A stretch of DNA of 64,000 bases, taken from assembly GCA_028282845.1 (NCBI GenBank), contig JANQGY010000018.1, positions 101,252-165,251 of the forward strand. The letters run 5' to 3'. The position numbers and the translations under genes are program-made. Of this stretch, positions 1 through 22,410 are shown piece after piece (position 1 is the stretch's first letter; each line of letters opens with the position of its first letter). The stretch comes from a bacterium (lineage in GTDB: Bacteria; Fidelibacterota; Marinisomatia; Marinisomatales; JAHJCW01). The notes under the pieces were generated by a model. It ran no database searches. It was not told the origin of the DNA and was given only the letters and a program-made list of their open reading frames with translations.

Positions 1-680
1 ATACTTTCATGAGTACCGGACCAATCACCCAAGGTATATTTCCATTCAACTGCTACCGGTGCATCAGCCACTGCTGCACCACGCCAATGATAATTATAAT
101 AACTTGAAGTTCCCTCACGATTCATTACAATTGAATGTGACCAGCCTTCAAGTGAACCGGCCATATGTACTTGTTGAGTCTCAGGATTAAAATCAGTGTT
201 GGTAGCCATATTTACTCTGAAATATACATCAAGTGAGTCAGCATCATCAGTGAAAGGACCTGTTTCCGAATTAACATATTCGACATCTAAAACAGTGTCT
301 GCTGCCGGAACAGTAAGTATTCTATTTGGAGTCCCTTCCCAATTTGAAGTTACCGTTCCATCTTGATTCAAGATGTTATAACCGAATTTGTACTGTTTAT
401 CAGTACCTACAGTTGCTGCGGGAAAGGTTACCGTTAATTCCCAATAATCACCGCCTACGCTTGTCATCGGATCGGCTGCGGGAGTCCAAACTGCACCTGA
501 AGTGTATTCCTGCACTTCACCGCGTAAATCAACACCGGTTAAACCGGGACCGCCGGCTGTAACATCTGAAGAATCGGTTACACCTTGTACTGTTGAAGTA
601 TTAGCACGAAAAGTAACGTTCACCTGTGAGAAAGCAACTGTTACCGTTAGTGCTAATAAAACTAGTAACGTTTTTTTCAT
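1..680 (-). CDS. Secreted protein with tandem starch-binding-like (CBM20-type) beta-sandwich modules; partial, runs off the left edge
   Basis: Absent from the supplied ORF track because it has no stop in the window. A reverse-strand ATG at 678-680 opens a frame that stays open to position 1 (226 codons). Translation: MKKTLLVLLALTVTVAFSQVNVTFRANTSTVQGV...KQYKFGYNILNQDGTVTSNWEGTPNRILTVP...DVYFRVNMATN...VEWKYTLGDWSGTHES. It has a signal peptide and two ~100-aa modules with the aromatic / WE..NR pattern I associate with starch-binding CBMs. The + strand ORFs 326-562 and 502-687 are antisense shadows of it. Confidence 0.6.
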   Translation of the reverse strand, partial: MKKTLLVLLALTVTVAFSQVNVTFRANTSTVQGVTDSSDVTAGGPGLTGVDLRGEVQEYTSGAVWTPAADPMTSVGGDYWELTVTFPAATVGTDKQYKFGYNILNQDGTVTSNWEGTPNRILTVPAADTVLDVEYVNSETGPFTDDADSLDVYFRVNMATNTDFNPETQQVHMAGSLEGWSHSIVMNREGTSSYYNYHWRGAAVADAPVAVEWKYTLGDWSGTHES

Positions 681-711: not shown

Positions 712-737
712 TTAGTAACTCATAACAGAGATACTAA
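712..737. promoter_or_regulatory. Candidate operator, copy 1: TTAGTAACTC-ataaca-GAGATACTAA (9/10 bp inverted repeat, 6-nt spacer)
   Basis: Read directly from the sequence. It lies 32 nt upstream of the start of the CBM gene (680, minus strand). The same 10-mer and the same spacing recur at 8602-8627 and 10599-10624. Confidence 0.5.
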
Positions 738-789
738 GTTGTGTAAGTTAAGTTTTTTTATCATTTTTACAAAGAGAAATCACACAATA

Positions 790-1791
790 CTATTTCAATA
801 ATACTGATAGTCCCCAATGCGGTATATAGCCGAACTTCCCAAAATCCTGAACCGTGTAATCAACTACCATTCCAAAACCACCGACATACACTTTTGCGCC
901 GATACCCATAGTCAAGCCTTCTTCGCTTGCCGAATCGCCAATCGCTTTATAGCCGGCTCGTAGAAATACCCGGTCAAGGAAGCCGGCTTCTATGCCGAAA
1001 TTCATAGATTCTACATCATCACTCGGCATAAAGAAATCACTTGCTAAAGTTAATCTGATTACATCACTATTGATAATGTCAGATGAAATGCCCACTCTAA
1101 AGAATAGAGGTAGGGGCCAGGCATCCGTTTTTAATTTGGCAACAATGGTTTCATTATGACCGCTATTATCAGGGTCAAGATCTATTGTTTTCAATAGATC
1201 CTTGCCATCCAAAGTCATATCTGTTCCAAAGTTGGAAATGCTCATCCCGATTCTAAAGTCCTCGTTCAACGATTGATATAACAGTCCGACATCTAAAGCC
1301 ACCGCTGAGGCACTTTCGTTATAGATTTTTTGAGTGATATATTTTAATGATCCGCCAATCGAAAAGCGGTTGGTCAAGTTTCGTGAATAGGATAGTCCCG
1401 TAACTAAATCGGATGCTTTCCAATATAGATTAGTCCCCGACTGATTGTACAAATCGGTAATTTCTTCTTCACCATAATCCAATTGAGTGAAGAATATCCC
1501 AATCGCGTTGGAACTGTTAAGTTTTAAGACTGCGGCTAATAAGTTGATATTTGTATCAACCAACCAATTAGTGTTTGAGAACATTGTTTGGCTGCTCCCA
1601 AGTCTTGAAATTGCGCCCGGATTCCAGTACATAGTTGAAGCGTCATCGGCAATTGAAGTAAAGGCGCCGCCCATTGCTACCGATTTCGGACCGACGCCGA
1701 TACCGAGAAATTGAGCAGCCGAAGTTCCGACTTTTGATTGAGCTGATATTATCGCGAATGCAATAAAAAATGTAATTGTAATTTTCTTCAT
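790..1791 (-). CDS. PorV/PorQ-family outer-membrane beta-barrel protein (T9SS-associated)
   Basis: Signal peptide MKKITITFFIAFAIISAQS, followed by the family-typical N-terminus GTSAAQFLGIGVGPKSVAMGGAFTSIADDASTMYWNPGAISRL. The rest shows an alternating beta-strand pattern. Its ATG overlaps the stop of the upstream 1305-aa gene (ATGA at 1788-1791). Confidence 0.7.
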   Translation of the reverse strand: MKKITITFFIAFAIISAQSKVGTSAAQFLGIGVGPKSVAMGGAFTSIADDASTMYWNPGAISRLGSSQTMFSNTNWLVDTNINLLAAVLKLNSSNAIGIFFTQLDYGEEEITDLYNQSGTNLYWKASDLVTGLSYSRNLTNRFSIGGSLKYITQKIYNESASAVALDVGLLYQSLNEDFRIGMSISNFGTDMTLDGKDLLKTIDLDPDNSGHNETIVAKLKTDAWPLPLFFRVGISSDIINSDVIRLTLASDFFMPSDDVESMNFGIEAGFLDRVFLRAGYKAIGDSASEEGLTMGIGAKVYVGGFGMVVDYTVQDFGKFGYIPHWGLSVLLK

Positions 1792-4700
1792 TTTATCACC
1801 GCTAATTTACCTGAATGTTTGCCCCCGGTTGGGGAATCTACGATGTAAAAATACACACCATAGGCGATATCCAAATTCTCTTTAGTCTTTAAATCCCATG
1901 TTACAGTTCCCGAGAAAATATCTCCGGTATGTTCAAGGGTTCGAAGATGCTGTCCGCGTGAGGTAAAGATATAAATTTTAGCATCGCTTGGGACGTTTTG
2001 GAAATACACTTTGCGCTCCCCGCGACCGCTTGTAATGCCCGGCGGCAGAGCGGATTCAAATTCCGTAGCGGCTACATACGGATTAGGGACCACACGAATT
2101 TCCGACATGTCAGTTTTAGTTAGTTTATCTTTCACAGCTGCTACCGGTGTTGTGAACTCATATACATCGCCTCGCCTAAACGGTTTGGTCATTGAAATAA
2201 ACAATGTATCACCTTCTCCAAAATTCAATCCATCGGCTTGCGAAGTATCACGCTCGGTAAAGATCATGGACCAAGTATAGCGATATTCATCCTCGTCATC
2301 TTTCTCATAAAAATAGATTAGATCAATCGGATCAATTACTCCCGGTCTGCCAAGCGCACTTTCAGCAAAGATGTAAGGTACTTCAACATTATTGGTTCGA
2401 TCCATAATTTTAAAATTGGTGTCGCTGCCCGGTGTTGCTGCGGGAAAAGTAAACGGATTTAAAGATTGACCAAATCCAATATCGTCACCGAATATTATCA
2501 TATAGTCACTAGGAATTTTAAGCGGAATGTACAATTTACCGCCAACCGATAAGTTTTGAGCGCCGATGCTAATTCCATAAGTGTTCTGAGCATCGTCTTT
2601 TGTCCAATTAGTGCCGTTTTCCGTAGTCCACCAGTAAGTTAAGGAGTCAATCGGGGCAACAATCCAATAATTGTTTTCTCCTGAAATCTGATCTAACAGT
2701 GGGCTGTTTTCAAATAATAAACGGATACCATCAAATGATTTTGTATCATTAGTTTCCGGTACGTAAGGATTTTCATCAGGATCATCCCAAATAGATTCCT
2801 GTATATAGGGATCTTTGTAAATCGGATAATATTCAAATGCAATGGTATGTTCATCAACACCGAGTGCATCGTGATAAGAGGCTTTAATTTTACCGCTGTT
2901 GTAAAGCAATACATATTTGTCGGTAGGGATGGTATTACCGAGACTATTGGTCAATTGCACTGTTTCCGGAATAATATTTTCATAAGGTAATTGTACAGTC
3001 AGTGTGTCTTCCGGAATGAATGTATATTTGACACCGGTTATATCCCGTACTGAGTAATATGTAGTCATCGGAGCATACTCTTCAAAATCTTTAATATCAA
3101 CATTTTGATCACCCGTATCCGAGATGCCATTATTGTTCGTGTCGTCAGCTATAGACCAATCATTGTCATTATCTATATCATCATTTGACGTATCAAAGAA
3201 TTCGACTCTGTAGCTATGTCCCGTTAAAGCTGTTTCATCAATTATTTCAATTCCTACACCACCGGTTGCAATTCCTGCTTCATGAGTTACCTCAATTGCT
3301 GAATCTAAAGTATAGCCGGCGGCTTTGGCTGTCGGTGTAATTGCTGTCGTATTTATATCGGTAACAACCTCTCCGGTGGATAAGATAGAAATAAATTTGG
3401 AGTTTTCAGCGGGGAAAATATTTTTGTCGGCATCGCCATGATCGTAGGCAACTAAAGCATAATAATAAGTTCTGCCGTTAACTACATCTTCATCAACATA
3501 ACTATGCACTAAACCGCTGTCATCGCCAAGGTAATAACTGTATCCTTTGGTTTGTTGAAATAATTCATTTGACGGATAAAAATAACCGTTGATCTCATCA
3601 TCTTTATCCCATTGCATGATTGGCATGTATCCTTCTACCAATCCATGAGCGTTAGTAACATTTCTAACATCATTGAAATTTGAATCGGTAGCTCGATACA
3701 ATTTGTATCCTTGGAAGTCTTCCTGCTTTGTAATTGGATCAGGATGTTCCTCGGCGGTTCTATTCCAGTATAAAGTTATTTTTCCATCACTGGCGACAGC
3801 TGTGAGCGTCGGTTTTTGGGGCGGTGGCGGGAACCGATAATTATTATTATAAATGTTCTGTACGGTTCGCTTATTCTCTATGAGATCGTCTAAATCTTCA
3901 CCATACACAAGTGCTAATGATAATCTTTCGGTTTGTCCGGCTAAGAGCGGAAAATAACCCGAGCCGTAAATAAAATCACCGTCACTGCCGCCCACCGGCT
4001 CACCATTTGAAATATTGTCGGGTGTGTCAAAAAATCCCGGCCGGAGTTTATTCCACAGCGCTTCGTCATCTTTCCAGGGATATTCCTGCGCAGGTTGGAA
4101 GTAATCGAAACTCGTCAGACCGATTTGATCAGACTCATCTACATCAGTTTGATCAAAATTCGGTTCACCGGCTGTCGGCAAGCCGTCCCCCTCACCATAA
4201 TCATAGGTATCTGAAATGCCATCGGCACCGACATCGTCAAAATCAATATCCCAATCATTGTCGTTGTCAATACCGTCATCGCGCCTTTCATCAATCATTG
4301 TATTATCAATGTTGGGATTATTGATATAATCAATATAAGCCCTTGGGTTCACTATATCGAATAGAACCTTGCCATTTTGATCAACGCGGCGTTGCCGATA
4401 ATGCAAATAATAGTTTTCGTCAATTAATCCGTCAAGGTCATTATCAATACCGTCAAAAGCATTCGGATTAACGATTTCGTCATCTTGCGAGTTAAGAATT
4501 ACATTCCCTTCAACAAGTTTGGTTGTGCCGGGTGTAATAGTAAAAGTTTTGCCGCGCGTTGTAATTTCGACCGTACCTTGATTTGGTATGGTAAACTCGG
4601 TTCTATTGTAATCATTATCAATCAGGATTACTTTATTTCCGACATTAATTAGAGTGGAATCAAAATCCTCTTCTTCGAAGGTAGGCACAAAAGTCGCTCC

Positions 4701-5705
4701 TTCGTAATCAAGATAATCACCGTCATTATCAATACCGTCGAAGGGATTTCCCGGACTTTCTAAGAAGGCATAACCGACCATTCCAACATCACCAACCCAG
4801 TTAGGATTGCGTGAAACGTCATTGTCATAATCCCCCGTGTAGGTGATGTCATCATTAACGTCAAAAAATGACCAGTCATCATCCGATTCACCGACATGCT
4901 TATCTCCGGTCACGCCTACGTAAGTACCGACAAGCATTCCAAAGGTTGCTTTGGTATAATCGGTCGTGCCCGTGTTGGTTACTTCATAAAGCCAGAATAA
5001 ACAATCCTGAGCGAGGAATTGTTGCCATTGCATGCCGCGAACTTTCATTTCTAATCCTAATCCATTTCGTGCCAGATTATTAGCATCGGGTTTAAATTCA
5101 ACGCCCCACATATTGTTATCGGCAAAGTTGAATTCCTCATCATGGTTATCATCCATTACATAATAGCTTTCCTGCTGAATATTTTGCAGGTCTTTACCAA
5201 AATATCCATTCCAGGAACCTCTCCAACCCGGATCATCTATGTCGTCAAATTTATCGGGCCAATAACTTGGCCAAGTGGAGGGGTCGGTACTCATCGCTAC
5301 ACGTTCATTAGATTCATTAAAATACCCGCTAACCGGTTCAAAACCCCAACGTTTCCCGCCAAGCGCTTCTTCCGGACCGGTTGATGACGGTCGGTCAATT
5401 GGGCAGGTCGTTACCGAGTGAAATGTTTGCAGTTGATTGATATTATTTTCAGATGTGATTTCCACCCCGAACAAAGGGCTTACGTCGCCAATATATCCAT
5501 TATTATCGTGGAGCCAAGCTCCTCTTGGATTTGCCTCAGCCGGCTGACCGACTACGCCCCAATTTCCAAAGACCGTACGAACTAAATTACCATTGTGGAT
5601 TGCCGTTCTGCGAAACTCCTTTCCGGATGGTAATTGCTGCGCCGATAGAGTGCAGCATAATCCCAAAATGATTAGTGAGGATAAAATAATCTTTTTAAAA
5701 GTCAT
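1788..5705 (-). CDS. Giant secreted Ca-binding-repeat protein with Fn3-like module and C-terminal beta-sandwich (T9SS/FlgD-Ig-like) domain; function unknown
   Basis: 1305 aa with signal peptide MTFKKIILSSLIILGLCCTLSA|QQ. Acidic DGIDNDxD repeats (thrombospondin-type-3-like) occur at aa 322-530 (nt 4116-4742) and as DDIDNDNDWSIADD at aa 841-870 (nt 3096-3185). An Fn3-like stretch PPPPQKPTLTAVASDGKITLYWN...FQGYKLYRA lies at nt ~3426-3830. The C-terminal 103 aa are VVPNPYVAAT...KIYIFTSRGQHLRTL...GVYFYIVDS...GKLAVIK (nt 1791-2099). The gene overlaps the TonB receptor gene by 11 nt. Confidence 0.6.
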   Translation of the reverse strand: MTFKKIILSSLIILGLCCTLSAQQLPSGKEFRRTAIHNGNLVRTVFGNWGVVGQPAEANPRGAWLHDNNGYIGDVSPLFGVEITSENNINQLQTFHSVTTCPIDRPSSTGPEEALGGKRWGFEPVSGYFNESNERVAMSTDPSTWPSYWPDKFDDIDDPGWRGSWNGYFGKDLQNIQQESYYVMDDNHDEEFNFADNNMWGVEFKPDANNLARNGLGLEMKVRGMQWQQFLAQDCLFWLYEVTNTGTTDYTKATFGMLVGTYVGVTGDKHVGESDDDWSFFDVNDDITYTGDYDNDVSRNPNWVGDVGMVGYAFLESPGNPFDGIDNDGDYLDYEGATFVPTFEEEDFDSTLINVGNKVILIDNDYNRTEFTIPNQGTVEITTRGKTFTITPGTTKLVEGNVILNSQDDEIVNPNAFDGIDNDLDGLIDENYYLHYRQRRVDQNGKVLFDIVNPRAYIDYINNPNIDNTMIDERRDDGIDNDNDWDIDFDDVGADGISDTYDYGEGDGLPTAGEPNFDQTDVDESDQIGLTSFDYFQPAQEYPWKDDEALWNKLRPGFFDTPDNISNGEPVGGSDGDFIYGSGYFPLLAGQTERLSLALVYGEDLDDLIENKRTVQNIYNNNYRFPPPPQKPTLTAVASDGKITLYWNRTAEEHPDPITKQEDFQGYKLYRATDSNFNDVRNVTNAHGLVEGYMPIMQWDKDDEINGYFYPSNELFQQTKGYSYYLGDDSGLVHSYVDEDVVNGRTYYYALVAYDHGDADKNIFPAENSKFISILSTGEVVTDINTTAITPTAKAAGYTLDSAIEVTHEAGIATGGVGIEIIDETALTGHSYRVEFFDTSNDDIDNDNDWSIADDTNNNGISDTGDQNVDIKDFEEYAPMTTYYSVRDITGVKYTFIPEDTLTVQLPYENIIPETVQLTNSLGNTIPTDKYVLLYNSGKIKASYHDALGVDEHTIAFEYYPIYKDPYIQESIWDDPDENPYVPETNDTKSFDGIRLLFENSPLLDQISGENNYWIVAPIDSLTYWWTTENGTNWTKDDAQNTYGISIGAQNLSVGGKLYIPLKIPSDYMIIFGDDIGFGQSLNPFTFPAATPGSDTNFKIMDRTNNVEVPYIFAESALGRPGVIDPIDLIYFYEKDDEDEYRYTWSMIFTERDTSQADGLNFGEGDTLFISMTKPFRRGDVYEFTTPVAAVKDKLTKTDMSEIRVVPNPYVAATEFESALPPGITSGRGERKVYFQNVPSDAKIYIFTSRGQHLRTLEHTGDIFSGTVTWDLKTKENLDIAYGVYFYIVDSPTGGKHSGKLAVIK

Positions 5706-8598
5706 AAGTAACTCCGATTTCTACTCTGCGGGGTTTGGAATAGTAAGTTGCATTGGTAAACCATTCATCAATAGTATTTATAAATTCAATCGTATTTTGG
5801 TCTTTAGCGATTTGAATGTCTTTTGTTTTATCAGCCACACCCGAATCATCGTAAACATTGGTTTGATTTAAATGATCAAATAGATTTTCTATTCTTAGGA
5901 AGAACGTCAACTTATGTGATCTGAATGTTAAGTTATAATAGCTTCGTAAATCAACATTCCAGGAAGCCGGTTTGCGTGCCGAGTTATTAACTAAAGCTGA
6001 AATGTCTTCCAAGGATTCAGGTGTATATGGCAAACCTGATCCATATTGGGCTATGGCGCTACCGCCCCAATTTCTACTGTTGTAGGAAACCGATGCATTT
6101 AAAGTATGGGACTGATCCCAGTCCAAGGGAACTAATTGAATTTCGGGCAGTTCTCCGCCGGCTAAAGCCTCTTGTGCTGCCTTTGGATCCGATGCGCTCC
6201 CTTTTGATATTTGATAAGTATAGTCAATTGCACCGGACCACCCGGACGATTCACGCATGGTCAATGCTAACACAAGTCCTCTGACATAAGCAAAATCGGA
6301 ATTGGCCAATTTGCTATAAGTGGCTGAACCGCCAAAAACAGAAATCTCCTCAGCTCTCGTACCGGCGAGATCACGTATGTCACGAAAATAACCTGTTACT
6401 TCAAGTGCTAAATTAGGCGCTAGCTGCTGTTGAATCCCGAGCTCACCGCTAACGGTTTTTTCAGGTTTTAAATCGGCATTGCCGACAACACCAACATTGC
6501 CGGTTCCCTGATCAAGATCAAAATCGGGATTCTCGTATAAATATTCAAACCTCGGAATCTGGAAAAAATGACCATAAGAGAAATGGACAACCCCCCGTTC
6601 GGTTATCGGGAAAGAGACACCCAAGCGCGGACTGATCTTCCATTTGGGTGAAGTATCTTTATACCAATATTCCTCCCGTTCCGCGAATGTTACAATTGGT
6701 TCCCCTTCATCCTGTACGCCATTATCATTTAGATCCTGATAGCGGTTTTCCGGTTTGATCGGATTATAGATGCTCGGATCAGTCGGGTCTGCTAATATTT
6801 TGCCCTTGGGATCAAAATAGTCAAATCTCACACCGGCATTGACGATCAGTTCATCAAATTCGATTTTATCCTGAATATATGCGCTGACCTCATACGGTTC
6901 AACATTATAACGACTGGTATGAATAGTTGAATCCGGCATTATAACAGGATTCTCCAAATAGGGACTATCATAGATTAAATCAACGGTGGTCTTTTCGGGC
7001 GGCGGTTGCAGATTAGCATCGAAATATTTAAGATTATGCATGCGATACTCGGCGCCGATTTTCATAAGGTGCCTTTGTGTAATTTGGCTGGTGAGATCAG
7101 CTTTAACTGTTGTCGTTATCGTGCTTCGTTCAAAGATATTATTCTGCGTTCCACCGGTTTTAAAACTGTAAGTATTTTGAATACCGTTTATATCATGTAT
7201 GTAAAGATTTTCATTTTTTTCGGAATAGGTCCGATGATTATAATTTTTGTCGAATCTGGTCAATCCGATTGAGTAATAAGTTTTTGCTCCGAAACTTTGA
7301 TTGAACTGTAATAATTGAGTTAGTCCTGAGCGATTCCTTGTCAATATTCCATCAGGATTATATTTATAATTTCTTGCTGCTGCCAAGTCTGCCGCGTAAT
7401 CCTGATATTCAACATTATCGCTAATAGCGGTATATCTAACTTTAATAAATGGAGAAATTTTCCAAATCAGTTTTAACTGTCCATACAATTTACGATTCCA
7501 TTCCATTGGAACATATTTACCATCTCCAACGGCATTGGTATGGTTTTCCTTTAGCAGGTTATACAACGAATCTATTTCAGCTTCGGTGGTCGCGCCGTAT
7601 TGAGGAGCAAAAAATTCATTCACTATTCTGTCAAATTCCGCATCTGAACCAAGAATATAGGTATCCGGTTCATCATCTTCATTAAAATAGGTTAATGCCA
7701 CTGAGTTCGGTTTATACAAACGCTTTCCTTCGTATTGACCTTGATAATAAATTGAACGTCCGTTCGCATAAAAATACAGTTTATCCCGAATTATTGATCC
7801 TTCAAGATGTCCTTCAATATTTTTTGTTGTTACTGGATTGAAATCATCAATGTTAAGGAATATGTCATCATGCGATGAAAAGAAGTCCCCACTATATAAT
7901 GATAAGCCACCATGCAGCTCATTTGTACCGTCTTTGGTAACAATATTGACAATTCCGCTCATGGCTTGTCCGTATTCAGCATTGAACGCACCCGAGATAA
8001 CCTGCATTTCTTCAACCGCATTTTTGTTTACGTCAACAACTGTGCCTCCGTCGTAAACATCGGTAACCGGTACACCATCAATCCAATAGGCTACTTCGCC
8101 TGAGCGACCGCCACGCAGGTGACCGTCCACGAATCCTGCCTGAAGTTCAAGCACATCGGATATTTCGGTAATCGGTAATGCTTCCATATCGGATGAATTG
8201 ACAATTGCAGTTGAAGCGGTTAGGTCTTTAGTGATCAGCGCTCTTTCGGCAACCACAACAACTTCCTCACCTTCAATAGCTTCGGTAGGTAAAGAAAAGT
8301 CAGCAGTTGTTGTTAGATCAATGCTGACTTCAATGTTTGTCATTCTGACTACCGAATAGCCTATCATACTTGCTCTAAGAGCATAATTGCCGGGCGGCAC
8401 ATTCAGAATATAATAATTGCCTTCCCAATCGGTTGCCGCTCCGAGGTCGGTTCCTTCAATCCAAACATTACAACCAATGAGTGGTTCGCCGCTTGATTGG
8501 TCAATTACATTTCCAGCAATTTTACCGGTTGTGCCTGAAAATACGAAAATGGGGAATACAATAAGAATGGTTAGAATTATTAAATATTTTATCTTCAT
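5695..8598 (-). CDS. TonB-dependent outer-membrane receptor with N-terminal CarboxypepD_reg-like domain (SusC-like architecture, no SusD partner)
   Basis: 967 aa with a signal peptide. The CarboxypepD_reg-like segment is GKIAGNVIDQSSGEPLIGCNVWIEGTDLGAATDWEGNYYILNVPPGNYALRASMIGYS. A plug-like region (EEVVVVAERAL...) follows, then a long beta-barrel ending in the terminal aromatic ...EIGVTYDF. Confidence 0.85.
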   Translation of the reverse strand: MKIKYLIILTILIVFPIFVFSGTTGKIAGNVIDQSSGEPLIGCNVWIEGTDLGAATDWEGNYYILNVPPGNYALRASMIGYSVVRMTNIEVSIDLTTTADFSLPTEAIEGEEVVVVAERALITKDLTASTAIVNSSDMEALPITEISDVLELQAGFVDGHLRGGRSGEVAYWIDGVPVTDVYDGGTVVDVNKNAVEEMQVISGAFNAEYGQAMSGIVNIVTKDGTNELHGGLSLYSGDFFSSHDDIFLNIDDFNPVTTKNIEGHLEGSIIRDKLYFYANGRSIYYQGQYEGKRLYKPNSVALTYFNEDDEPDTYILGSDAEFDRIVNEFFAPQYGATTEAEIDSLYNLLKENHTNAVGDGKYVPMEWNRKLYGQLKLIWKISPFIKVRYTAISDNVEYQDYAADLAAARNYKYNPDGILTRNRSGLTQLLQFNQSFGAKTYYSIGLTRFDKNYNHRTYSEKNENLYIHDINGIQNTYSFKTGGTQNNIFERSTITTTVKADLTSQITQRHLMKIGAEYRMHNLKYFDANLQPPPEKTTVDLIYDSPYLENPVIMPDSTIHTSRYNVEPYEVSAYIQDKIEFDELIVNAGVRFDYFDPKGKILADPTDPSIYNPIKPENRYQDLNDNGVQDEGEPIVTFAEREEYWYKDTSPKWKISPRLGVSFPITERGVVHFSYGHFFQIPRFEYLYENPDFDLDQGTGNVGVVGNADLKPEKTVSGELGIQQQLAPNLALEVTGYFRDIRDLAGTRAEEISVFGGSATYSKLANSDFAYVRGLVLALTMRESSGWSGAIDYTYQISKGSASDPKAAQEALAGGELPEIQLVPLDWDQSHTLNASVSYNSRNWGGSAIAQYGSGLPYTPESLEDISALVNNSARKPASWNVDLRSYYNLTFRSHKLTFFLRIENLFDHLNQTNVYDDSGVADKTKDIQIAKDQNTIEFINTIDEWFTNATYYSKPRRVEIGVTYDF

Positions 8599-8601
8599 AA
8601 T

Positions 8602-8627
8602 TTAGTAACTCACTTTAGAGTGTCGTT
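8602..8627. promoter_or_regulatory. Candidate operator, copy 2: TTAGTAACTC-acttta-GAGTGTCGTT (left half perfect, right half 5/10)
   Basis: Read directly from the sequence. It begins 4 nt upstream of the TonB-receptor start codon (8598, minus strand). The 10-mer and 6-nt spacer match the copies at 712 and 10599. Confidence 0.4.
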
Positions 8628-8729
8628 ATAGAATAGCTGAATTTAAAAATCAAATACTATTATTTCTAATATATTTATAACAAGAAACTAATATTATAAA
8701 TTTATCTAACTGGGGTATTTTAGATAGTT

Positions 8730-10586
8730 TTAATCATGAATAAATATCGCAAAGGAGTTTGCTTTGAGTTCTTTCTTATCTGAGCAACCACCTATTAATT
8801 TCCACTTATTTTTACCGCCCGGCAAGAAATCTGCCGGCAGATTATAATTGCTACCTGTAGAATTGAATACGACAATCAGCTTTTGCGAATTATAACTCCT
8901 TGTAAAAGCAAATATTCCATGATCGTCATCAACAAAGTGATTAGCATAGGATCCTCTATTAAGGATCGGATACTCTTTTCTCAAGGCGATCATTTGTTTA
9001 TAGAAATCAAACAGATTGCTGTCAACCTGAACCACATCATTATGTGCACGGTAATCACAATCCGGTGAATAATCGCAGGGATGCGCCTGTTCGTTTTCAT
9101 ATATAAGATCGGGCCAGAGCATTGGCTTTCTGCAGTCAGGATCATCGGCGCCCCACATGCCGACTTCATCACCATAATATATATATGGAGCACCGATAAA
9201 ACTGAATTGGAAGGCAATGATATTTTTTTGAATTTGTCGCTCAAATTCATTTGGTTTGCGGGTAACAAATTCCGGATTCCAACCGAGATTATTAGCATGA
9301 TCAATCCATCTGTCGGGGTTGACAATCGCCGAGGCAAACCGTTCCATATCATGGCTGCCGAGCAGATTTTGTATGGTCATTGCTCTTGCAATGCCATAAT
9401 CATTAATGATTGATTCTAATGATTGTTGCAATTCTGACGGGCTGATCTTCATTTCTTGATCAATAAAGAATCGGAACATGGCATCGGCAAACCGATAATT
9501 CATAACGCCGTCAAACCGTCCGTCTGCTAACCAGGGAGCGGCATTGAATTGCTTATTATTCCAGTAATCTTCCCACCAAACCTCACCGGTTATGTACGCA
9601 TTGGGATTAATCTCCTTGACCCATTTGCCAAATAAATCCCAAAATTTTATTTGAACTCTTTCGGCTACATCAAGCCGCCATCCGTCAATTCCATCGCTTG
9701 GATCGCCGTCTCCATTGGGGTCCATCCATCTTTTTACGACTTCATATAGATGATTTCTAACCGGTTCCACGGGTCCGTATTCGTCCTGTCTGAATGCCGG
9801 AAGATCTTCGACATATCCGGTATATTGAAAAGGTATTTGTTCTTCAGCTATAAATGGTTTTGGCAATTCAACAAACGCATTCAAATGCGATGCATCCGGT
9901 AATCCATTGCCCTTTATGTTGAACCACTCAAAATATTTGCTTTGGTCACGATTCTCAATTACATCCTCAAATGCCCAAAAGGTTAATCCGACATGATTGA
10001 ATACGCCGTCAATGATTATGTGCATTTCTCGATTATGTACTTCTCCAATAAGCTGTAGAAAAAGTTTATCGGCAGAAGTCCACTTCCATGTAGTAGGATC
10101 ACTGGGATCTTCACTTTCAATTATTTTTGTGTCTCCAACCGGATCAGGTCCAAAATGGTGATCAATATGGTGGTACATAGCGGCGCCATATTTATGACTT
10201 GAAGGGGAATCAAATACGGGATTTAAATAAATTGCATTGATTCCTAAATCCTGTAGATAATCAAGTTTATCAATAATACCCTGAATATCTCCGCCGTAAC
10301 GCCGAATTTGGAATTGGTAGCGATATTCATTGCCGTTGGCAATTTCCCAGGGCTGCAATTTGTACCAATCCGACGTCCATGGCGAAATATACCACTGCTT
10401 CTGTAGTTCCCAGGGCCAAACGCCCCACATACTTTCAATAGTCGGATCATTACTTTGATCGCCATTATAAAATCTATCAGGAAATATTTGATACCAAATG
10501 GCATCGGCAGCCCATTCAGGGTTACCGGCAATTAGTCCTGAAAATAAAATTAAAATGATCAAAATTATTTTTTTATTCTTTTTCAT
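8730..10586 (-). CDS. Secreted GH13 alpha-amylase family enzyme (neopullulanase/cyclomaltodextrinase-like)
   Basis: 618 aa with a signal peptide. GH13 motifs seen: WYQIFPDRFYNGD, GGDIQGIIDKLDYLQDLGINAIYLNPVF, DGVFNHVG (region I), DGWRLDVAE (region II, nucleophile Asp), TGEVWW (region III) and LLGSHDMERF (region IV). Confidence 0.85.
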   Translation of the reverse strand: MKKNKKIILIILILFSGLIAGNPEWAADAIWYQIFPDRFYNGDQSNDPTIESMWGVWPWELQKQWYISPWTSDWYKLQPWEIANGNEYRYQFQIRRYGGDIQGIIDKLDYLQDLGINAIYLNPVFDSPSSHKYGAAMYHHIDHHFGPDPVGDTKIIESEDPSDPTTWKWTSADKLFLQLIGEVHNREMHIIIDGVFNHVGLTFWAFEDVIENRDQSKYFEWFNIKGNGLPDASHLNAFVELPKPFIAEEQIPFQYTGYVEDLPAFRQDEYGPVEPVRNHLYEVVKRWMDPNGDGDPSDGIDGWRLDVAERVQIKFWDLFGKWVKEINPNAYITGEVWWEDYWNNKQFNAAPWLADGRFDGVMNYRFADAMFRFFIDQEMKISPSELQQSLESIINDYGIARAMTIQNLLGSHDMERFASAIVNPDRWIDHANNLGWNPEFVTRKPNEFERQIQKNIIAFQFSFIGAPYIYYGDEVGMWGADDPDCRKPMLWPDLIYENEQAHPCDYSPDCDYRAHNDVVQVDSNLFDFYKQMIALRKEYPILNRGSYANHFVDDDHGIFAFTRSYNSQKLIVVFNSTGSNYNLPADFLPGGKNKWKLIGGCSDKKELKANSFAIFIHD

Positions 10587-10598
10587 ATCGGTGCTAAC

Positions 10599-10624
10599 TT
10601 AGTAACTCTTTTATGAGTTAATGA
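10599..10624. promoter_or_regulatory. Candidate operator, copy 3: TTAGTAACTC-ttttat-GAGTTAATGA (8/10 bp inverted repeat, 6-nt spacer) in the amylase/trmB divergent region
   Basis: Read directly from the sequence. It lies 13 nt upstream of the amylase start (10586, minus strand) and 43 nt upstream of the trmB-like start (10668, plus strand). Confidence 0.5.
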
Positions 10625-11501: not shown

Positions 11502-13583
11502 TTGAAAAAAATACAGTTCATTTTTGGTATTCATTTGCATCAACCGGTCGGTAATTTTGATTGGGTTTTTGAAGATGCTTACCAAAAGAGTTATAAACCC
11601 TTCATTGATGTCTTAAAAAAATATCCTTCAATTGCCTTAGTTATTCATATTAGCGGACCGTTGCTTGATTGGTTAGAAGAGCATCATCCTGAATTTCTCG
11701 ATGAAATTGCGGGATTGGTTCAATCGCGTGATATTGAAGTTTTAAGTGCCGGATATTACGAACCTATCTTGGCGGTCATTCCTGACCATGATAAGGTCGG
11801 TCAGATCAAAAAACTGAATAAATATATTTATAAACGTTTTAATTATGATGCGAAAGGTATTTGGTTAACCGAGCGGGTTTGGGAACCGCATTTAGCCAAA
11901 CAGATCAGCAAAGCTAATATAAAATATATTGCAGTAGATGATTTCCATTTTCTTGCTGCCGGCAAAATGAATGATGAATTGAACGGTTATTACACCACCG
12001 ATGAGCAGGACGCGCGCCTTGCGGTTTTTCCAATTAGTCAGGAATTAAGATATTTAATACCATTCCAAGAGCCTGACGACACGATCAAATATCTTGAATC
12101 AATTGCTTCTGAAAAGGATAATAAAGTAATTGTAATGGCAGACGATGCGGAAAAATTTGGTGTTTGGCCCGGAACGTATGAGAACTGTTTTGGCAGAAAT
12201 GATTGGTTGAATCGTTTCTTCAAGGCTTTGGATGACAATAAAGATTGGTTAATAACTACAACATTTGAGAAATTCTATCTGTCAAATAAACCGCTTGGCA
12301 GAATCTATTTGCCGACGGTCAGTTATTTTGAGATGAACGAATGGACCTTGCCTGCTGAGAGAGGTGAACAGTTTTCTGATTTAGTCCATGATTTCGAAAA
12401 ATCGGCAAAGATTGACAAATACAAACAGTTCCTGCGGGGCGGAATGTGGCGCAATTTCCAAAACCTATATGATGAATCAAACTGGATGCAGAAGCGGGTC
12501 TCGGATTTATCATTTATTTATGAAACCTACAAAAAGAAGTTAAGCAAGAAAGACCATAAACTTACTCAGGATCATATTTGGAAAGCACAATGCAATTGCG
12601 CTTATTGGCATGGCGTATTCGGCGGATTGTATCTTCCGCATCTTCGACATGGAATATATGAAAATTTGATCGCCGCCGATAAAATAATCAGCAAAGTGTT
12701 ACCGCCATTCTCCGGCACATTCGATCTTGATAATGATGGATATGATGAAGTTGATTTGCTTTCCAATCAAATAAAGATTATCACAAGCACCAAAGGCGGA
12801 TGCATCCGTGAATTTGATATTCTCTCAAAGAATTTCAATATTCTTAATACGATGCATCAGGTTACTGAAAGCTATCATCGTAACTTAGCCTCCGCCTCTA
12901 CCGGTAAGGTCACAAGCGGTTCAATCCACGATAACATTGTAATGAAAGAGAAAAATCTCGATAAAATTCTCAATGTTGATAAATTCCCGCGCTATATGTT
13001 GGCAGACCATTTTTACCCGAAGAATGTATCGTTCAAAGCAGTACAGGCAGGATCACATGAAAGGGGAGATTTTGCGAATCGGGAATTTGATGTAGTTAGA
13101 GATACCAATATCAATTTTAAGGCGCTTGGAAGTGCCTTTGAAACTGATCTACAAATTCATAAAAAGATCAGTGTCAGTGCCAATAAACTAACTGTCAATC
13201 TTACCTTGCAAAATAAAGGTGCGAATTTGATCAAAGGAATATATGGGTCCGAATTGAATTTCGCCCTTTTAGGCGGACATACTGAAGATCGTTACTATCG
13301 TGTTAATGGTAAAAAGCCGGCGAATTACTACCTTGACTCCAAAAAAATTGAAAATGAAGTTAAGTCCATTGAATTAGTCAATGAATATGATAAATTTTTG
13401 GTTCAAATTCTTTTTAATGATTCGACCAAAGTATGGCGCTTTCCGGTTTTTACAGTTTCAGGTAGTGAAGCCGGTTTGGAGAAAGTTTATCAGAGTTCAG
13501 TACTAATCCCTAATTGGAAATTAGAATTGAAACCAAAAGATAAATTGAAGATAAGATTTAAAATTATAATCAAGGAACTATGA
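11502..13583 (+). CDS. GH57 4-alpha-glucanotransferase (Thermococcus-type)
   Basis: 693 aa with a TTG start. From memory it is nearly colinear with the Thermococcus litoralis GH57 4-alpha-glucanotransferase. Shared segments: FIFGIHLHQPVGNFDWVFEDAY, GIWLTERVWEP (catalytic Glu), MADDAEKFGVWPGTYE (catalytic Asp) and KAQCNCAYWHGVFGGLYLPHLR. The stop overlaps the next ATG (ATGA at 13580-13583). Confidence 0.85.
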   Translation: MKKIQFIFGIHLHQPVGNFDWVFEDAYQKSYKPFIDVLKKYPSIALVIHISGPLLDWLEEHHPEFLDEIAGLVQSRDIEVLSAGYYEPILAVIPDHDKVGQIKKLNKYIYKRFNYDAKGIWLTERVWEPHLAKQISKANIKYIAVDDFHFLAAGKMNDELNGYYTTDEQDARLAVFPISQELRYLIPFQEPDDTIKYLESIASEKDNKVIVMADDAEKFGVWPGTYENCFGRNDWLNRFFKALDDNKDWLITTTFEKFYLSNKPLGRIYLPTVSYFEMNEWTLPAERGEQFSDLVHDFEKSAKIDKYKQFLRGGMWRNFQNLYDESNWMQKRVSDLSFIYETYKKKLSKKDHKLTQDHIWKAQCNCAYWHGVFGGLYLPHLRHGIYENLIAADKIISKVLPPFSGTFDLDNDGYDEVDLLSNQIKIITSTKGGCIREFDILSKNFNILNTMHQVTESYHRNLASASTGKVTSGSIHDNIVMKEKNLDKILNVDKFPRYMLADHFYPKNVSFKAVQAGSHERGDFANREFDVVRDTNINFKALGSAFETDLQIHKKISVSANKLTVNLTLQNKGANLIKGIYGSELNFALLGGHTEDRYYRVNGKKPANYYLDSKKIENEVKSIELVNEYDKFLVQILFNDSTKVWRFPVFTVSGSEAGLEKVYQSSVLIPNWKLELKPKDKLKIRFKIIIKEL

Positions 13584-15226
13584 TGGAAACGCAGACGAAG
13601 ATTGCATATTTCAGTGCCGAGATCGGAATATCGGCAAAATTGCCGACCTACAGCGGTGGATTGGGAGTTTTAGCGGGCGATCATATTAAAGCCGCCGCCG
13701 ATGCCGAACTGCCGATGTGTGCTGTTACCCTGCTCTATAAGGAAGGCTATTTTAAACAAAGGATTGATGATGACGGTCGTCAATCGGAAGCATATCCCCA
13801 ATTTGATCCCAATCCTTTGTTAAAAAAAATACCAATTAAATTCACTTTGCCTTTAAGGAAAAGAGCGGTGATGATCCAGGTTTACGAGTATCGTTATAAG
13901 GGTCTGACCGGACACGAAATACCAATCTATTTTCTTGACACTAATTTAGAAGAAAATTTTTACGACGATCAGGTAATCACTTTGCGCCTGTACAGCGGCG
14001 ATAAGGATCACCGTATTTTGCAGGAAGCACTTTTAGGATTCGGTGGTATAAAATTACTTGAAGAATTAAAATACAAGAATATCGAAACTTACCACATGAA
14101 TGAGGGACACGCTTCCTTCATAATAATGCAGCTATTGCGCAAATTCGACGGCAATCATGATGAAGTTCGCAAAAGATGCCATTTTACCACCCATACCCCG
14201 GTTCCGGCCGGCCACGACGAATTTGCGATTGATCGCTGTGAAAGATTATTGGACGGGCTGCTGTGGAAAGAATTGAGTGAAATTTCATCAATTCAAAACG
14301 GACGATTACACATGACCGAGCTCGGATTGCATTTTAGCCGTTCCGCCAATGGTGTATCGCAATTGCATGGGAAAGTTGCTCAAGATCAATTCCCACAATA
14401 TAAAATTGGTCATATAACCAATGGAGTTTATCATCCTTATTGGGCCGGTAAGGATTTCCGTGAGGTGTTCGATAATCGGCTTCCCGGATGGCGTGAAGAT
14501 CCCACCCGACTATTGAATGTTGACGCTATTTTACCCAAGGAAATTGTCAAAGCCCATCAGAGCCATAAAGATTTTTTACTTGGATATGCCAATTCACAAA
14601 CTCAAATGGCATTATCAAATGATATTTTAACCATCGGATTTGCGCGGCGTGCCGCCGCTTATAAGCGGGCAGGATTAATATTCAGCAATATGGAAAGACT
14701 TGCTCAAATCGGACAGGGCAAAATTCAGATTATATTTGCCGGTAAAGCGCATCCGGCTGATGAAAACGGTAAAGAAATAATCCATCAAGTTGTGCAGAAC
14801 GCCAAAAAATTATTCGGTACGATTAAAATAGTTTATTTAGAGAATTATAATCTTTGGTTGGGCAGGATCATTACTTCCGGTGTAGATGTTTGGTTAAATA
14901 CACCACGCCGACCGAATGAGGCATCGGGCACAAGTGGAATGAAAGCAGCCCTCAACGGCATACCGAACCTTTCAATTTTGGATGGTTGGTGGGCTGAAGC
15001 CTGTCAACATGGTGAAAACGGTTGGGCAATCGGGAATCCTGAAATCATTGATGATGTTGCCGATGCCGAACACTTATATTCGGTGTTGGAGCAGGAATTA
15101 ATCCCGACATTTTATAATGAACCTGAGAAATGGGCTGATTTGATGATTAATTCCATTGCTACCGGCGTACAGTTTTCAGCCTACCGCATGATAAACGACT
15201 ATAAAGATAAGTACTACAAATTATAA
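13580..15226 (+). CDS. Alpha-glucan (maltodextrin/glycogen) phosphorylase, short GT35 form
   Basis: 548 aa. Motifs seen: IAYFSAEIGISAKLPTYSGGLGVLAGDHIKAAADAELPMCAVTLLYKEGYF and EASGTSGMKAALNG, which carries the PLP-binding Lys. Confidence 0.85.
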   Translation: MMETQTKIAYFSAEIGISAKLPTYSGGLGVLAGDHIKAAADAELPMCAVTLLYKEGYFKQRIDDDGRQSEAYPQFDPNPLLKKIPIKFTLPLRKRAVMIQVYEYRYKGLTGHEIPIYFLDTNLEENFYDDQVITLRLYSGDKDHRILQEALLGFGGIKLLEELKYKNIETYHMNEGHASFIIMQLLRKFDGNHDEVRKRCHFTTHTPVPAGHDEFAIDRCERLLDGLLWKELSEISSIQNGRLHMTELGLHFSRSANGVSQLHGKVAQDQFPQYKIGHITNGVYHPYWAGKDFREVFDNRLPGWREDPTRLLNVDAILPKEIVKAHQSHKDFLLGYANSQTQMALSNDILTIGFARRAAAYKRAGLIFSNMERLAQIGQGKIQIIFAGKAHPADENGKEIIHQVVQNAKKLFGTIKIVYLENYNLWLGRIITSGVDVWLNTPRRPNEASGTSGMKAALNGIPNLSILDGWWAEACQHGENGWAIGNPEIIDDVADAEHLYSVLEQELIPTFYNEPEKWADLMINSIATGVQFSAYRMINDYKDKYYKL

Positions 15227-15240
15227 TTGGAGCCCGCCAA

Positions 15241-18200
15241 ATGACAATCGAAAATAGCGAAACTAATTACGCTATTCGTCATTTTCACATTTCCCGAAAG
15301 ATCCGTGAAAAATATGATCTGAAAGAGTCATTGTTCAAGCTTTCAGGGGCAACAGTCCTCTTAGATTTTAAGTCTGTCAGGGAGCTGACTGATAAATTGA
15401 ACGAAGAAACTGAGGAGCCATTATTCGCAAGCGATTTGAATGCTTTAGGATTGATCCATGAGTGTTTGCATTATATTATATCGGTCTATCTTGAAAAAGT
15501 AAAATCCGATGCATTAAATAATCTTGTTAAAACATTAGACAGCGCTTTGCAGCAAAGTGAATTTGAGAATACGCTAACTGAGTTTATTGCCGAATTTCCA
15601 CCTAACTCAGTATTCAATAAAGAAGAAACAATCCAACAATATATAAATGGGGAAACAGAGGGCGTATCGAATCGGGAATTAATATTGGAAGAACTCCTGC
15701 TACTTTGGCTGGAAAATCAAAATCCCGCTTTTAAACCATTTTCAATTTTATTTGATGATACGCAACTGCTAAAGAATTCAAAATATGCGGCTGTAATTGA
15801 ACAGTCAAAGAACTATTTTGTTGATCTACCATTTTTCGGACCTGATAATCAAGATTTGATTTCCATGCTGCGCATGCCTGCTATTGTAGCACCGGATTCG
15901 CTGCAAAAACAATTGGAATATATTCGTGATAAATGGGGTTATTTACTTGGTGATTTGCTCAAAAATATTCTTCAAGCTTTGGACTTTATTTCCGAAGAAA
16001 AGAAACAACGAGGGTTTGGTCCCGGCGAAATTGCTGTGCCGGAATATGATGGTGAAGAGGATTATGAGCGTTTTAGCCATGATCGGGAATGGATGCCCAA
16101 AGTAGTGATGATCGCCAAAAATGCCTATGTCTGGATGGATCAATTATCAAAACAATATCAATGTAATATTGATACCTTAGATAAAATACCGGATGAGGAA
16201 TTAGATAGATTGGCAGGTTATGGTTTTACTGCACTATGGCTGATCGGATTATGGGAAAGGAGTAAAGCTTCAAAAAGGATTAAACAACTGCGCGGAAATC
16301 CCGAAGCGGAAGCCTCGGCTTATTCTTTGATGAATTACGAAATAGCGGCTGACCTTGGTGGTTGGGAAGCGTTGCATAATTTACGCCGGCGCAGTTGGCA
16401 ACGGGGGATAAGATTAGCGAGCGATATGGTTCCAAACCACACCGGAATTGACTCAAATTGGGTAATCGAACATCCCGATTGGTTTCTTGCTTTGGATCAT
16501 TCACCATATCCGTCTTATTCATTCAACGGTGAAAATCTTTCTCAGGATGATAGAGTAGGCATCTACATTGAAGATAAATATTTTTCACAATCCGATGCTG
16601 CGGTGGTTTTTAAACGGATTGATTTTTGGACGGGCAATGAGAAATTTATTTATCACGGTAACGATGGAACGGCAATGCCTTGGAATGACACGGCGCAATT
16701 GAATTATCTTAATCCTAAAGTTCGTGAAGCTGTGATCCAAACAATATTACATGTGGCGCGGAGTTTTCCGATTATCCGTTTTGATGCAGCGATGACGCTT
16801 GCCAAAAAACATCTGCAGCGATTATGGTTTCCGGAACCCGGCTCGGGCAGCGATATTCCATCACGGGCTGAGTTTGGTATGACGAAAAAAGAATTTGACA
16901 AACTTATCCCAACCGAGTTTTGGCGCACTGTGGTTGATCGAATAGCAGAAGAGGTGCCTGATACTTTGTTGTTAGCCGAAGCATTTTGGATGATGGAAAG
17001 TTATTTTGTCCGTACGCTTGGCATGCATCGCGTTTACAACAGCGCTTTTATGAATATGCTCAAAATGGAGCGCAATGCCGATTATCGCGCTACCATTAAA
17101 AAAACATTGGAGTTTGATTCTGAGATATTGAAACGCTTTGTCAATTTCTTGAATAATCCCGATGAAGAAACTGCCGTCAAACAATTTGGCAAAAGCGATA
17201 AGTATTTTGGGATAACATTGATGATGGTTACAATGCCCGGCTTGCCGATGTTTGGGCATGGTCAAATCGAGGGATGGGAAGAAAAATATGGCATGGAATA
17301 TCGTAAATCGTATTGGGATGAGGAGATTGATTGGGATTTTGTCGAAAGGCATAAATGGGACATATTCCCATTAATTCATAAAAGGTATATTTTCTCGGGT
17401 GTAACAAATTTTTATTTATATGATTTTTTCACTGATGACGGAAAGGTCAATGAAAATGTGTTTGCCTATTCTAATCAACAAGGGGATGAAAGAGCATTAA
17501 TTATTTATAATAATTCATTTCAGCGTACAGCCGGTTGGGTGAAAACATCAACAGCAATCAGGAATAAAGCCACCGGTAAATTATATCAAAAAAATATTGG
17601 TGTGGGGCTCGGTTTGACCAATACAGCCAATAATTATTTAATATTCAGAGAACACAAATCTAATCTCGAATTTATCCGCAAGGTTTCTGAAATATTTGAA
17701 AAAGGAATATACTCGGAGCTGAATGGTTATCAATATCAAGTATTTTTGGATATCCGTCAGGTGCAGGATAATGAATTTGGTCATTATAACAAATTATGTG
17801 GACGGCTTGGCGGTAGAGGGGTAGCGAGCATTGCCGAGGAACTGAACCTGTTCAAAAAGCAGGAACATGATGTTTTGTTTATCAGTGCCGAAGTATCCCC
17901 GTTTTCAAAAGCGGGCGGCTTAGCCGATGTAGCGCGCTCCCTGCCAATCGAGATAGCAAAATCCGAGAGGAAAACTGCTATCATTTCGCCCTTTTATCGT
18001 TCAGTTGGCGAATATGAAAATGTTAAAGATTTTAATTTGTCAGGCTCGATTTTTTTAGATGGTGAAGAGTTCCACTATGAATTGCAACATGCCAAGCATG
18101 AATCGGGCACCGATCTTTTCTTCGTAAAAAATGATTATTTTTTCAACCGCAAGGGTGTTTATACGGATGCCAAAGGGGAAGGTTATTCTGACAACAATAA

Positions 18201-20531: not shown

Positions 20532-20598
20532 CCGCAAATATAGCGGAGCATGCAAAATTTTGATAAACGTCTTTACGGTTAAGCAAAAGGAGTAAATC

Positions 20599-22401: not shown

Positions 22402-22410
22402 AGGACGAAT

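Follow-up and report, generated by a model that had tools for sequence, protein, structure and literature searches.

To our knowledge, nearly everything established about the TrmB family of transcription regulators comes from archaea. The operators published for the family are TACT-N3-AGTA for TrmB at malE, TATCAC-N5-GTGATA (the TGM) and TACT-N7-8-GAGTA in haloarchaea (PMC4158304). Here we analyze a 64-kb stretch of contig JANQGY010000018.1 (hereafter the window, meaning the whole of it) from a bacterium of the Marinimicrobia/Fidelibacterota, in which a palindrome of the consensus tTAGTAACTCA-N4-TGAGTTACTAa stands before three alpha-glucan genes and, in one of these cases, also faces a gene for a TrmB-like regulator. 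We propose, with a probability of roughly 80% and on comparative evidence from sequence, that these palindromes serve as DNA operators, each bound by a dimer of the TrmB-family regulator whose gene lies at 10668-11486. The sites most probably define an alpha-glucan regulon encompassing surface binding, outer-membrane uptake, enzymes of the GH13, GH57 and GH77 families and the regulator itself, to which the glycogen genes behind trmB probably also belong.

The consensus matches neither TACT-N3-AGTA nor TATCAC-N5-GTGATA. A first-pass annotation of this DNA had pointed to a likeness between the AGTA and TACT tetramers of the half-sites and the first of these, which proves superficial, as the tetramers are reversed in order and lie at the outer ends of the palindrome, 18 nucleotides (nt) apart. 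The Pyrococcus/Thermococcus TrmB otherwise shares with the window regulator its Pfam family, the DNA-contacting tyrosine and the location of its gene inside the controlled cluster, and it represses maltose/maltodextrin uptake, as we presume for repression here; the subdomain in which its six sugar-contacting residues from Asn305 to Glu326 are found is absent from our protein. In the case of TrmBL1/Tgr, the points in common are a TrmB-family regulator with an inverted repeat before amylase, sugar-transport and sugar-metabolism genes, a repressing site just past the core promoter and over the start, and a regulator gene beside the maltodextrin cluster (PMC4158304), with binding at our sites being predicted. 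The Thermococcales TGM differs in its half-site and in its odd spacer, as against an even one here (8-N4-8 or 7-N6-7); the setting is of the TATA/BRE rather than the bacterial sigma70 type, and TrmBL1/Tgr has 341 amino acids (aa) as against 272 aa without the C-terminal sugar-binding subdomain. The NCBIfam TrmBL1 model gives the window regulator 57 bits against a cut-off of 650. When the consensus strings are compared by eye, the inner ACTC-N6-GAGT resembles the TACT(C)-N6-7-GAGTA of the Halobacterium salinarum TrmB (VNG1451C), from which it differs by an extra A/T base in the half-site (TAACTC rather than TACTC). The haloarchaeal protein governs a sugar-responsive regulon in which the position of the site sets the mode of action (PMC4158304), a responsiveness that would have its counterpart here; it has 360 aa and a full effector domain, and its NCBIfam model scores the window regulator at 22 bits against a cut-off of 500. 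The chromatin protein TrmBL2 (TK0471/PF0496) is the best full-length structural match and has the same short two-domain build, with about 264 aa. Its binding extends over coding as well as intergenic DNA and follows no defined motif (PMC4158304), whereas the regulator studied here is tied to a sharp 20-bp palindrome found almost only in promoter regions.

Among bacterial systems, the Bacteroides Sus system resembles the locus as a TonB-dependent starch uptake locus of the FCB group with surface starch-binding proteins, GH13 enzymes and one local regulator. The regulator family is a different one, SusR being a membrane-spanning activator. A Sus-like locus is recognized by a SusC-like receptor adjacent to a SusD-like lipoprotein; the receptor is present here, and no SusD homologue was detected with Pfam or NCBIfam, the gene after the receptor (1305 aa) matching nothing in either. 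Our literature search, whose incomplete coverage makes it weak evidence of novelty, retrieved no paper that links TrmB to Marinimicrobia, gives this motif or describes a bacterial TrmB regulon. What is new is the operator sequence, the uncultured bacterial host and the short sensor domain; TrmB-family regulation as such is already known.

Three exact copies of the 10-mer TTAGTAACTC had been reported by the first-pass annotation, and this is borne out: they lie at 712, 8602 and 10599 on the + strand, with no other copy on either strand of the window, while dinucleotide shuffles hold 0.05 copies on average and none of 100 shuffles reaches three. Each copy is intergenic and upstream of a minus-strand alpha-glucan gene, for a CBM20 protein, a TonB-dependent receptor and a GH13 amylase, respectively, and the third also faces trmB; Pfam assigns all four genes to the families that the annotation had given them. 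On the coding strand, which for all three downstream genes is the minus strand, the motif appears as GAGTTACTAA. The 10-mer lies 31 nt from the start codon of the CBM20 gene (ATG 680), 3 nt from that of the receptor gene (ATG 8598; earlier measured as 4 nt) and 12 nt from that of the amylase gene (ATG 10586). The counts of complementary positions between the arms, 9/10, 5/10 and 8/10, are correct on re-reading. When up to three mismatches are allowed, a search for 10-N6-10 palindromes finds 712-737, with one mismatch, and 10599-10624, with two, and no others, against an expectation of 0. At the second site the left half is perfect and the right half (GAGTGTCGTT) is poor, reading as the variant GACAC on the other strand. 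Chance, or a dispersed repeat, is ruled out as the origin of the three copies by the shuffles and by the location of the sites.

A weight-matrix scan, which the annotation had suggested, was run with a matrix built from the sites of other genomes only. It ranks the three window sites first, with 31.0 bits for site 1, 26.0 for site 3 and 22.2 for site 2, all inside the training range of 19-35 bits; the next-best position, at 27125, scores 9.2 bits and falls inside an open reading frame (ORF). By the same matrix no degenerate site precedes the other GH13 genes at 25-31 kb, where that position is again the best; further GH13/CBM48 genes are found at 26986-31383, without a site. A candidate fourth site at 5705 (TAAGTAACTC) was dismissed as chance: it coincides with the last codons of the receptor gene, has no partner arm and stays outside the top 15 weight-matrix scores (below -4.6 bits).

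For comparison, we assembled 53 loci (L001-L053) from species-representative genomes through an alignment of 25 homologues of the regulator, annotated as Marinimicrobia, Neomarinimicrobiota or Fidelibacterota, with regulator identities of 45-84%; in total 912 kb were scanned, namely the window and about 850 kb of relatives. Of the 51 loci that have sequence upstream of trmB, 48 carry the palindrome, with 15 or more of its 20 specified bases, no further than 200 nt ahead of the gene and mostly 36-116 nt from its start. Two of the remaining three have a recognizable site in the core scan, and the third (L031) has an inserted gene with sites on both its sides. The core GTAACTC-N6-GAGTTAC, with up to two mismatches, is matched 87 times in the scanned sequence as against 2-6 times in shuffles, the window contributing exactly its three sites; 86 of these matches are intergenic, the lone exception being a two-mismatch match deep in an ORF. 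The frequency table of 81 distinct sites reads tTA-GTAACTCA-nnnn-TGAGTTAC-kA, with the four central bases free and with the flanking T at -1 conserved although it played no part in site selection.

The motif persists in orthologous gaps, as the first-pass annotation had proposed checking, down to about 50% identity of the regulator. The position of site 1, between the genes for the PorV-like and CBM proteins, carries a site in L004, L052, L013, L014, L033, L037, L042 and L044, and contig L072 has another at its end, next to the gene for the PorV-like protein. The position of site 2, in the receptor leader, carries one in L002, L004, L052 and L035, as do the receptor leaders of the rearranged loci L014, L021, L023, L033, L037, L038, L042 and L044. 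The 26-mer of site 2 is found unchanged in L002, L004 and L052; L035, whose regulator is 51% identical, has it with two substitutions, in the flank and the spacer (ATAG..CATTTTA for TTAG..CACTTTA). The half-site GACACTC is also seen before GH13 genes in L028 and L031, before a CBM gene in L044 and at L014:20104. As the same 26-mer recurs and GACACTC arises independently elsewhere, the right arm of site 2 appears to be a tolerated variant half-site rather than a decayed one.

Clustering the genes whose starts face a site, with clusters labelled by Pfam, gives 49 for trmB, 33 for GH13 amylases, which are the commonest neighbors other than trmB, 14 for TonB-dependent receptors, nine for starch-binding CBM proteins, seven for GH77 4-alpha-glucanotransferases and three for GH57 enzymes, alongside one case each of a pullulanase-like GH13 and an MFS transporter. 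The nine starch-binding proteins combine CBM20, CBM48 or CBM53 with a type IX secretion (T9SS) sorting tail, and in other lineages the GH57 or GH77 gene behind trmB has a site of its own. Thus, in the window and its relatives the motif is tied to glycan genes instead of being spread regardless of function: there are only three sites in 64 kb, and the intergenic matches nearly all stand beside alpha-glucan genes or trmB. The comparative data hence favor the earlier suggestion of a repressor operator and a small sugar regulon linked to the adjacent trmB-like gene.

Several arrangements in these loci deserve mention in their own right. The receptor rather than the amylase diverges from trmB at L014:9805/9944, L021:7497/7636 and L023:515/655, and the gap there has two palindromes about 140 bp apart, one per gene. 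A PorV-like gene of about 335 codons occupies the corresponding place before the CBM gene in L013, L014, L033, L037, L042 and L044. A second contig of the metagenome-assembled genome that provided L004 has, at L050:2989, a near-identical trmB upstream region with the same palindrome in front of a broken trmB frame (45% identity by tblastn and no long ORF), which is either a pseudogene copy or an assembly error.

A scan that was not anchored on trmB extends the motif beyond the phylum. Searching a metagenome collection for TAGTAACTCA-N4-TGAGTTACTA (20 specified bases), and calling genes in the GC-rich contigs by codon-position GC, we obtained 23 contigs, of which only L068 and L072 are of the Marinimicrobia type. 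Four contigs (L055/L063, L056 and L071; 54-62% GC) have an exact site directly at the start of a trmB homologue with 33-35% identity to that of the window; the distant homologues are named Myxococcales or Polyangiaceae. In two of four Myxococcota trmB loci fetched by protein, a core without mismatches precedes trmB or the two-gene operon to which it belongs, at 72-73% GC. Sugar-related genes also adjoin the site in other GC-rich contigs (66-71% GC): one for an alpha-glucan phosphorylase in L059, a GH13 gene in L060, where the site falls in the gap between two tandem GH13 genes, and one for a CBM20 protein in L076. In the same range of GC content, an exact site precedes a DeoC/LacD-family aldolase (L057:1747) and another lies about 350 nt before an Edd/IlvD-type dehydratase (L058:64), which hints that in other phyla the regulon may reach into central sugar metabolism, by analogy with archaeal TrmBL1/Tgr. 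The window-type, distant metagenome and Myxococcota regulators all have the recognition helix SGVPRSAIY. The joint occurrence of the motif and the regulator subfamily in two phyla, over a twofold range of base composition, is our strongest ground for taking this protein, rather than another, to read the site.

The same search returned five contigs (42-44% GC, with hardly any ORFs) that share the palindrome GTAGTAACTCACGTGTGAGTTACTAC, at L064:522, L066:876 and 1199, L067:1276, L074:2406, and L075:1107 and 1430; the second copy in L066 and L075 is about 320 nt from the first. This looks like an unrelated repeat in a genome of low coding density.

The regulator itself has a winged helix-turn-helix of Pfam family PF01978 at residues 14-80 (E = 3.2e-17; 62.6 bits against a cut-off of 25.6), followed by a match to PF11495 (31.4 bits against 22.2) that covers only profile positions 2-119 of 233. 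A family profile aligned with P. furiosus TrmB (3QPH) only over residues 6-164, and also matched TrmBL2. The AlphaFold2 model, with a pLDDT of 84, consists of the winged helix-turn-helix, a linker helix and one alpha/beta (PLD-like) domain ending at residue 272. In a Foldseek search it matched TrmBL2 chains at full length and 133 of the 233 residues of 2F5T, the TrmB sugar-binding domain, at a root-mean-square deviation of 3.1, as well as PLD-fold nucleases. Y53 is invariant in the 25 homologues and aligns with Y50 of 3QPH, the DNA-recognition tyrosine of Pfu TrmB (PMC4158304). The NCBIfam models of the four named archaeal types (TrmB, TrmBL1, TrmBL2 and haloarchaeal TrmB) all stay below threshold, TrmBL1 with 57 bits, haloarchaeal TrmB with 22 bits and the other two with 55 and 38 bits, against cut-offs of 500-650. 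By sequence, the regulator is hence a TrmB-family protein that is the orthologue of no characterized member, and homology gives no pointer to its ligand. Aromatic residues of its second domain are invariant within the phylum and visibly kept in the 33%-identical Myxococcota proteins; it is a guess of ours that a ligand pocket lies among them.

The placement of the sites relative to promoters was assessed with a simple sigma70 scoring scan, the promoters being candidates by consensus matching. In the amylase direction, many lineages show TTGGGG (or TTGATG, TTGCCG), 17 nt, TAATAT and 6-9 nt before the core G. Counting promoters that score 6 or more, the best one has its -10 element ending 6-9 nt before the core, mostly 7 nt, at 17 of the 35 GH13 sites; a further four, with lower scores, show this spacing too. 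Behind trmB, the best hit at five of the ten GH77 and GH57 sites is TTGACT, TTGATT or TTGACA, 17-18 nt, nAAnwT and then 4-5 nt to the core. Transcription usually starts about 7 nt past the -10 element, so the operator would span roughly +1 to +20. It is from sites over this post-promoter position that archaeal TrmBL1/Tgr and haloarchaeal TrmB repress (PMC4158304). The -10 just before the core, with the site covering the predicted start in many lineages, suggests a repressor geometry, and repression is a prediction from related lineages and from the archaeal analogy. Within the window, its three gaps offer several AT-rich promoter candidates, none compelling except the TAGAAA-17-TAAATT pair before site 2, whose boxes recur at 14-15 nt from the core in L002, L004 and L052. 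The annotation's placement of the sites between promoters and start codons therefore stands insofar as the site follows a sigma70-like -10 in many lineages, and is weak in the window's own. A conserved box AATTTAA after the palindrome in the amylase leader (L007-L009, L015-L019, L026, L029, L030, L047 and L051) reads on the trmB strand as TAAATT two bases before the core, a possible -10. The divergent amylase and trmB promoters may thus face each other across one operator, a lead only, as the corresponding -35 elements are poor matches that run into the start codon of the amylase gene.

The annotation had also entertained an RNA hairpin formed by the palindrome in the 5' leaders; such a structure could act through stability, processing or translation. 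The sites lie between likely promoters and start codons and so are probably at least partly transcribed, site 2 adjoins the receptor start codon, and sites 1 and 3 fold into stems of 6-9 bp at -5 to -8.5 kcal/mol, about 3 standard deviations below shuffles. The pattern of variation speaks otherwise. Across 69 distinct 26-mers, the seven core pairs contain one compensatory cell in all, departures being one-sided and breaking the pairing; pair 6/21 alone has 23 unpaired cells and six G-U. Covariation is no higher than in column shuffles for changes on both sides (355/500) and for further pair types (497/500), and it is only marginal for cells paired (24/500 shuffles reach the observed value) and for the covariation score (48/500). 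The sequence of the arms is conserved, which hairpins do not need; site 2 is kept although it folds poorly (-4.3 kcal/mol); where a -10 is clear, transcription would begin at or inside the first arm; and the motif follows one regulator gene across phyla from 38 to 73% GC. Rfam yields no match at the sites at gathering score or E<=1, and the terminator scan lists no intrinsic terminator there, the stems having no following T-run. On pair counts at the 69 sites, folding and Rfam, the RNA-leader alternative finds no support and we regard it as very unlikely. Symmetrical variation is seen only in the three outermost pairs and in the innermost one, where it is equally expected of a palindrome bound by a dimer. 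Conserved arms, a free spacer and independent drift of the halves instead bespeak a protein-binding palindrome. At L049:7587 (TTAGTAACTA-CTTTTA-TAGTTACTAA), one arm has A for C and the other T for G, a symmetrical double substitution that no other site shows in its core.

Granting a protein-binding site, it could be a genuine operator of another transcription factor encoded elsewhere, with trmB nearby only as a member of the starch locus. The link of the site to the TrmB-like protein is a comparative one, some exact matches have no trmB in the fragment examined, and half-sites of the GT..AC type also occur in the operators of other families, such as GntR-type sites. This reading is improbable in our view, given that trmB is the commonest neighbor of the motif, that the site stands right at trmB in Myxococcota-type contigs with unrelated gene context (L055/L063, L056, L071, L077 and L079) and that no other regulator gene recurs beside annotated sites. 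Alternatively, the TrmB-like protein could bind and activate, like SusR of the Bacteroides starch system or TrmBL1/Tgr at gluconeogenic promoters. Members of the TrmB family can do both (PMC4158304), and with the weak promoter calls in the window lineage the site could precede an unrecognized promoter. The sites are, however, 3-31 nt from the start codons, leaving no room for a downstream promoter at the receptor (3 nt) and amylase (12 nt) genes; the -10 elements of relatives lie just upstream of the site, and archaeal members of the family act as repressors when bound downstream of the core promoter (PMC4158304). There is thus only a small chance that activation is the mode of action.

Certain observations weigh against a TrmB operator that represses alpha-glucan genes. 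The counts of trmB-adjacent sites are partly by design, since L001-L053 were gathered around trmB, which inflates the number for that gene; the motif-anchored scan and 53 kb of site-free window sequence offset this bias in part. Two of the four fetched Myxococcota loci have no site nearby within three mismatches, and some exact matches stand beside genes without a sugar link, namely a DUF2169 gene (L062), an AIR-synthase-like gene (L069) and a convergent gap (L054). The promoter boxes of the window lineage are weak or ambiguous, with GTAGGT..AAAAAT for the amylase (GTGGGT..TAATAT in L052) and nothing convincing for the CBM gene, so the repressor geometry is borrowed from relatives. The closest structural match, TrmBL2, is a non-specific chromatin protein. 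The C-terminal sugar-binding subdomain is absent: the protein ends at 272, the sequence match to TrmB stops at about 165 and the fold match is to the first subdomain of 2F5T only. Six of the seven sugar-contacting residues of TrmB (Asn305, Gly320, Met321, Val324, Ile325 and Glu326) fall in that subdomain, and TrmBL2 likewise lacks this stretch of 70 residues (PMC4158304). As to the convergent gap, the match at L054:1538 is a perfect one over 24 bases in a contig of 71% GC; it is flanked by a GST-like gene and a Ser/Thr-kinase/AAA/TPR gene, neither of which has its start toward it.

If the palindromes are indeed operators of the TrmB-like protein, the recognition helix of each subunit (SGVPRSAIYSVLN) would read one GTAACTCA half-site, the two half-sites being 4 nt apart. 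The sites would sit on or shortly after the transcription starts for the amylase, the receptor unit and the CBM20 protein, and next to the promoter of trmB, where the bound regulator would block RNA polymerase. A signal derived from alpha-glucan would then release the regulator, permitting expression of the genes for uptake, degradation and glycogen together with trmB, which would thus be autoregulated. Taking these elements jointly, we tentatively sketch a fuller picture, itself rather doubtful as a whole, in which a short, TrmBL2-like bacterial branch of TrmB has retained a single recognition helix and a single 20-bp operator (GTAACTCA-N4-TGAGTTAC) in the Marinimicrobia/Fidelibacterota and the Myxococcota at least. 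Its members might sense alpha-glucan with the PLD-like domain alone, through a candidate pocket made of the aromatic residues conserved between the phyla (in the window protein W115, Y120, W143, F167-S-F169, Y182 and W193) and without the canonical sugar-binding subdomain; in many lineages one site might lie on the starts of two face-to-face divergent promoters, with one dimer shutting both.

The Marinimicrobia (SAR406) are abundant in the dark ocean and in oxygen-minimum zones, and we know of almost no cultured members and of essentially no described gene regulation in them. With the motif, a regulon for alpha-glucan uptake and glycogen metabolism in these bacteria becomes testable; it can also help in interpreting metatranscriptomes and supplies a compact operator/repressor pair to try as a genetic part. 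If the proposal is true, there is a bacterial TrmB branch with a defined operator and a truncated sensor domain, raising the question of how it senses sugar.

Table. Predicted operator sites, candidate promoter and surrounding genes in the window
Feature	Position	Strand	Sequence, basis or remark
CBM20 starch-binding protein, cut by the window edge	1..680	-	Pfam; target of site 1
Operator site 1 (predicted)	712..737		TTAGTAACTC-ATAACA-GAGATACTAA; between the stop of the PorV/PorQ-family gene (790) and the CBM20 start (680)
PorV/PorQ-family outer-membrane protein	790-1791	-	NF033709, 188 bits
1305-aa protein	1788-5705	-	no Pfam or NCBIfam match
TonB-dependent receptor	5695-8598	-	CarboxypepD_reg and Plug domains; PF00593, PF07715, PF13715
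Operator site 2 (predicted)	8602..8627		TTAGTAACTC-ACTTTA-GAGTGTCGTT; 3 nt from the TonB-receptor ATG
Candidate receptor-unit promoter	8640..8668	-	-35 TAGAAA (8668-8663), 17 nt, -10 TAAATT (8645-8640), 15 nt to operator core
GH13 alpha-amylase	8730..10586	-	Pfam; target of site 3
Operator site 3 (predicted)	10599..10624		TTAGTAACTC-TTTTAT-GAGTTAATGA; 81-nt divergent gap between the ATGs of GH13 amylase (10586) and trmB (10668)
trmB-like regulator, 272 aa	10668..11486	+	PF01978 and PF11495; diverges from the amylase gene
Gene string behind trmB	11502..25206	+	GH57, alpha-glucan phosphorylase, GH13-starch-synthase fusion, GlgC, SSF (sodium:solute) symporter, secreted GH13/CBM48; Pfam, NCBIfam, ORF spacing

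The genes for the receptor, the 1305-aa protein and the PorV/PorQ-family protein overlap or abut at their boundaries and form a three-gene unit (790..8598, minus strand) that is the target of site 2; the trio is kept in L072 at 64-66% identity. To judge by ORF spacing, the genes at 11502..25206 are probably co-transcribed with trmB and hence also under site 3. The trmB-headed string of seven tightly packed genes (10668-25206, plus strand) joins breakdown, by the GH57 enzyme, the alpha-glucan phosphorylase and the secreted GH13/CBM48 protein, with glycogen synthesis, by a GlgA-like fusion and GlgC, and with the SSF symporter. The fusion, encoded at 15241-19290 on the plus strand, has 1349 aa and combines a GH13 alpha-amylase-type domain (residues 319-681) with GT5 starch-synthase and GT1 domains (878-1317).

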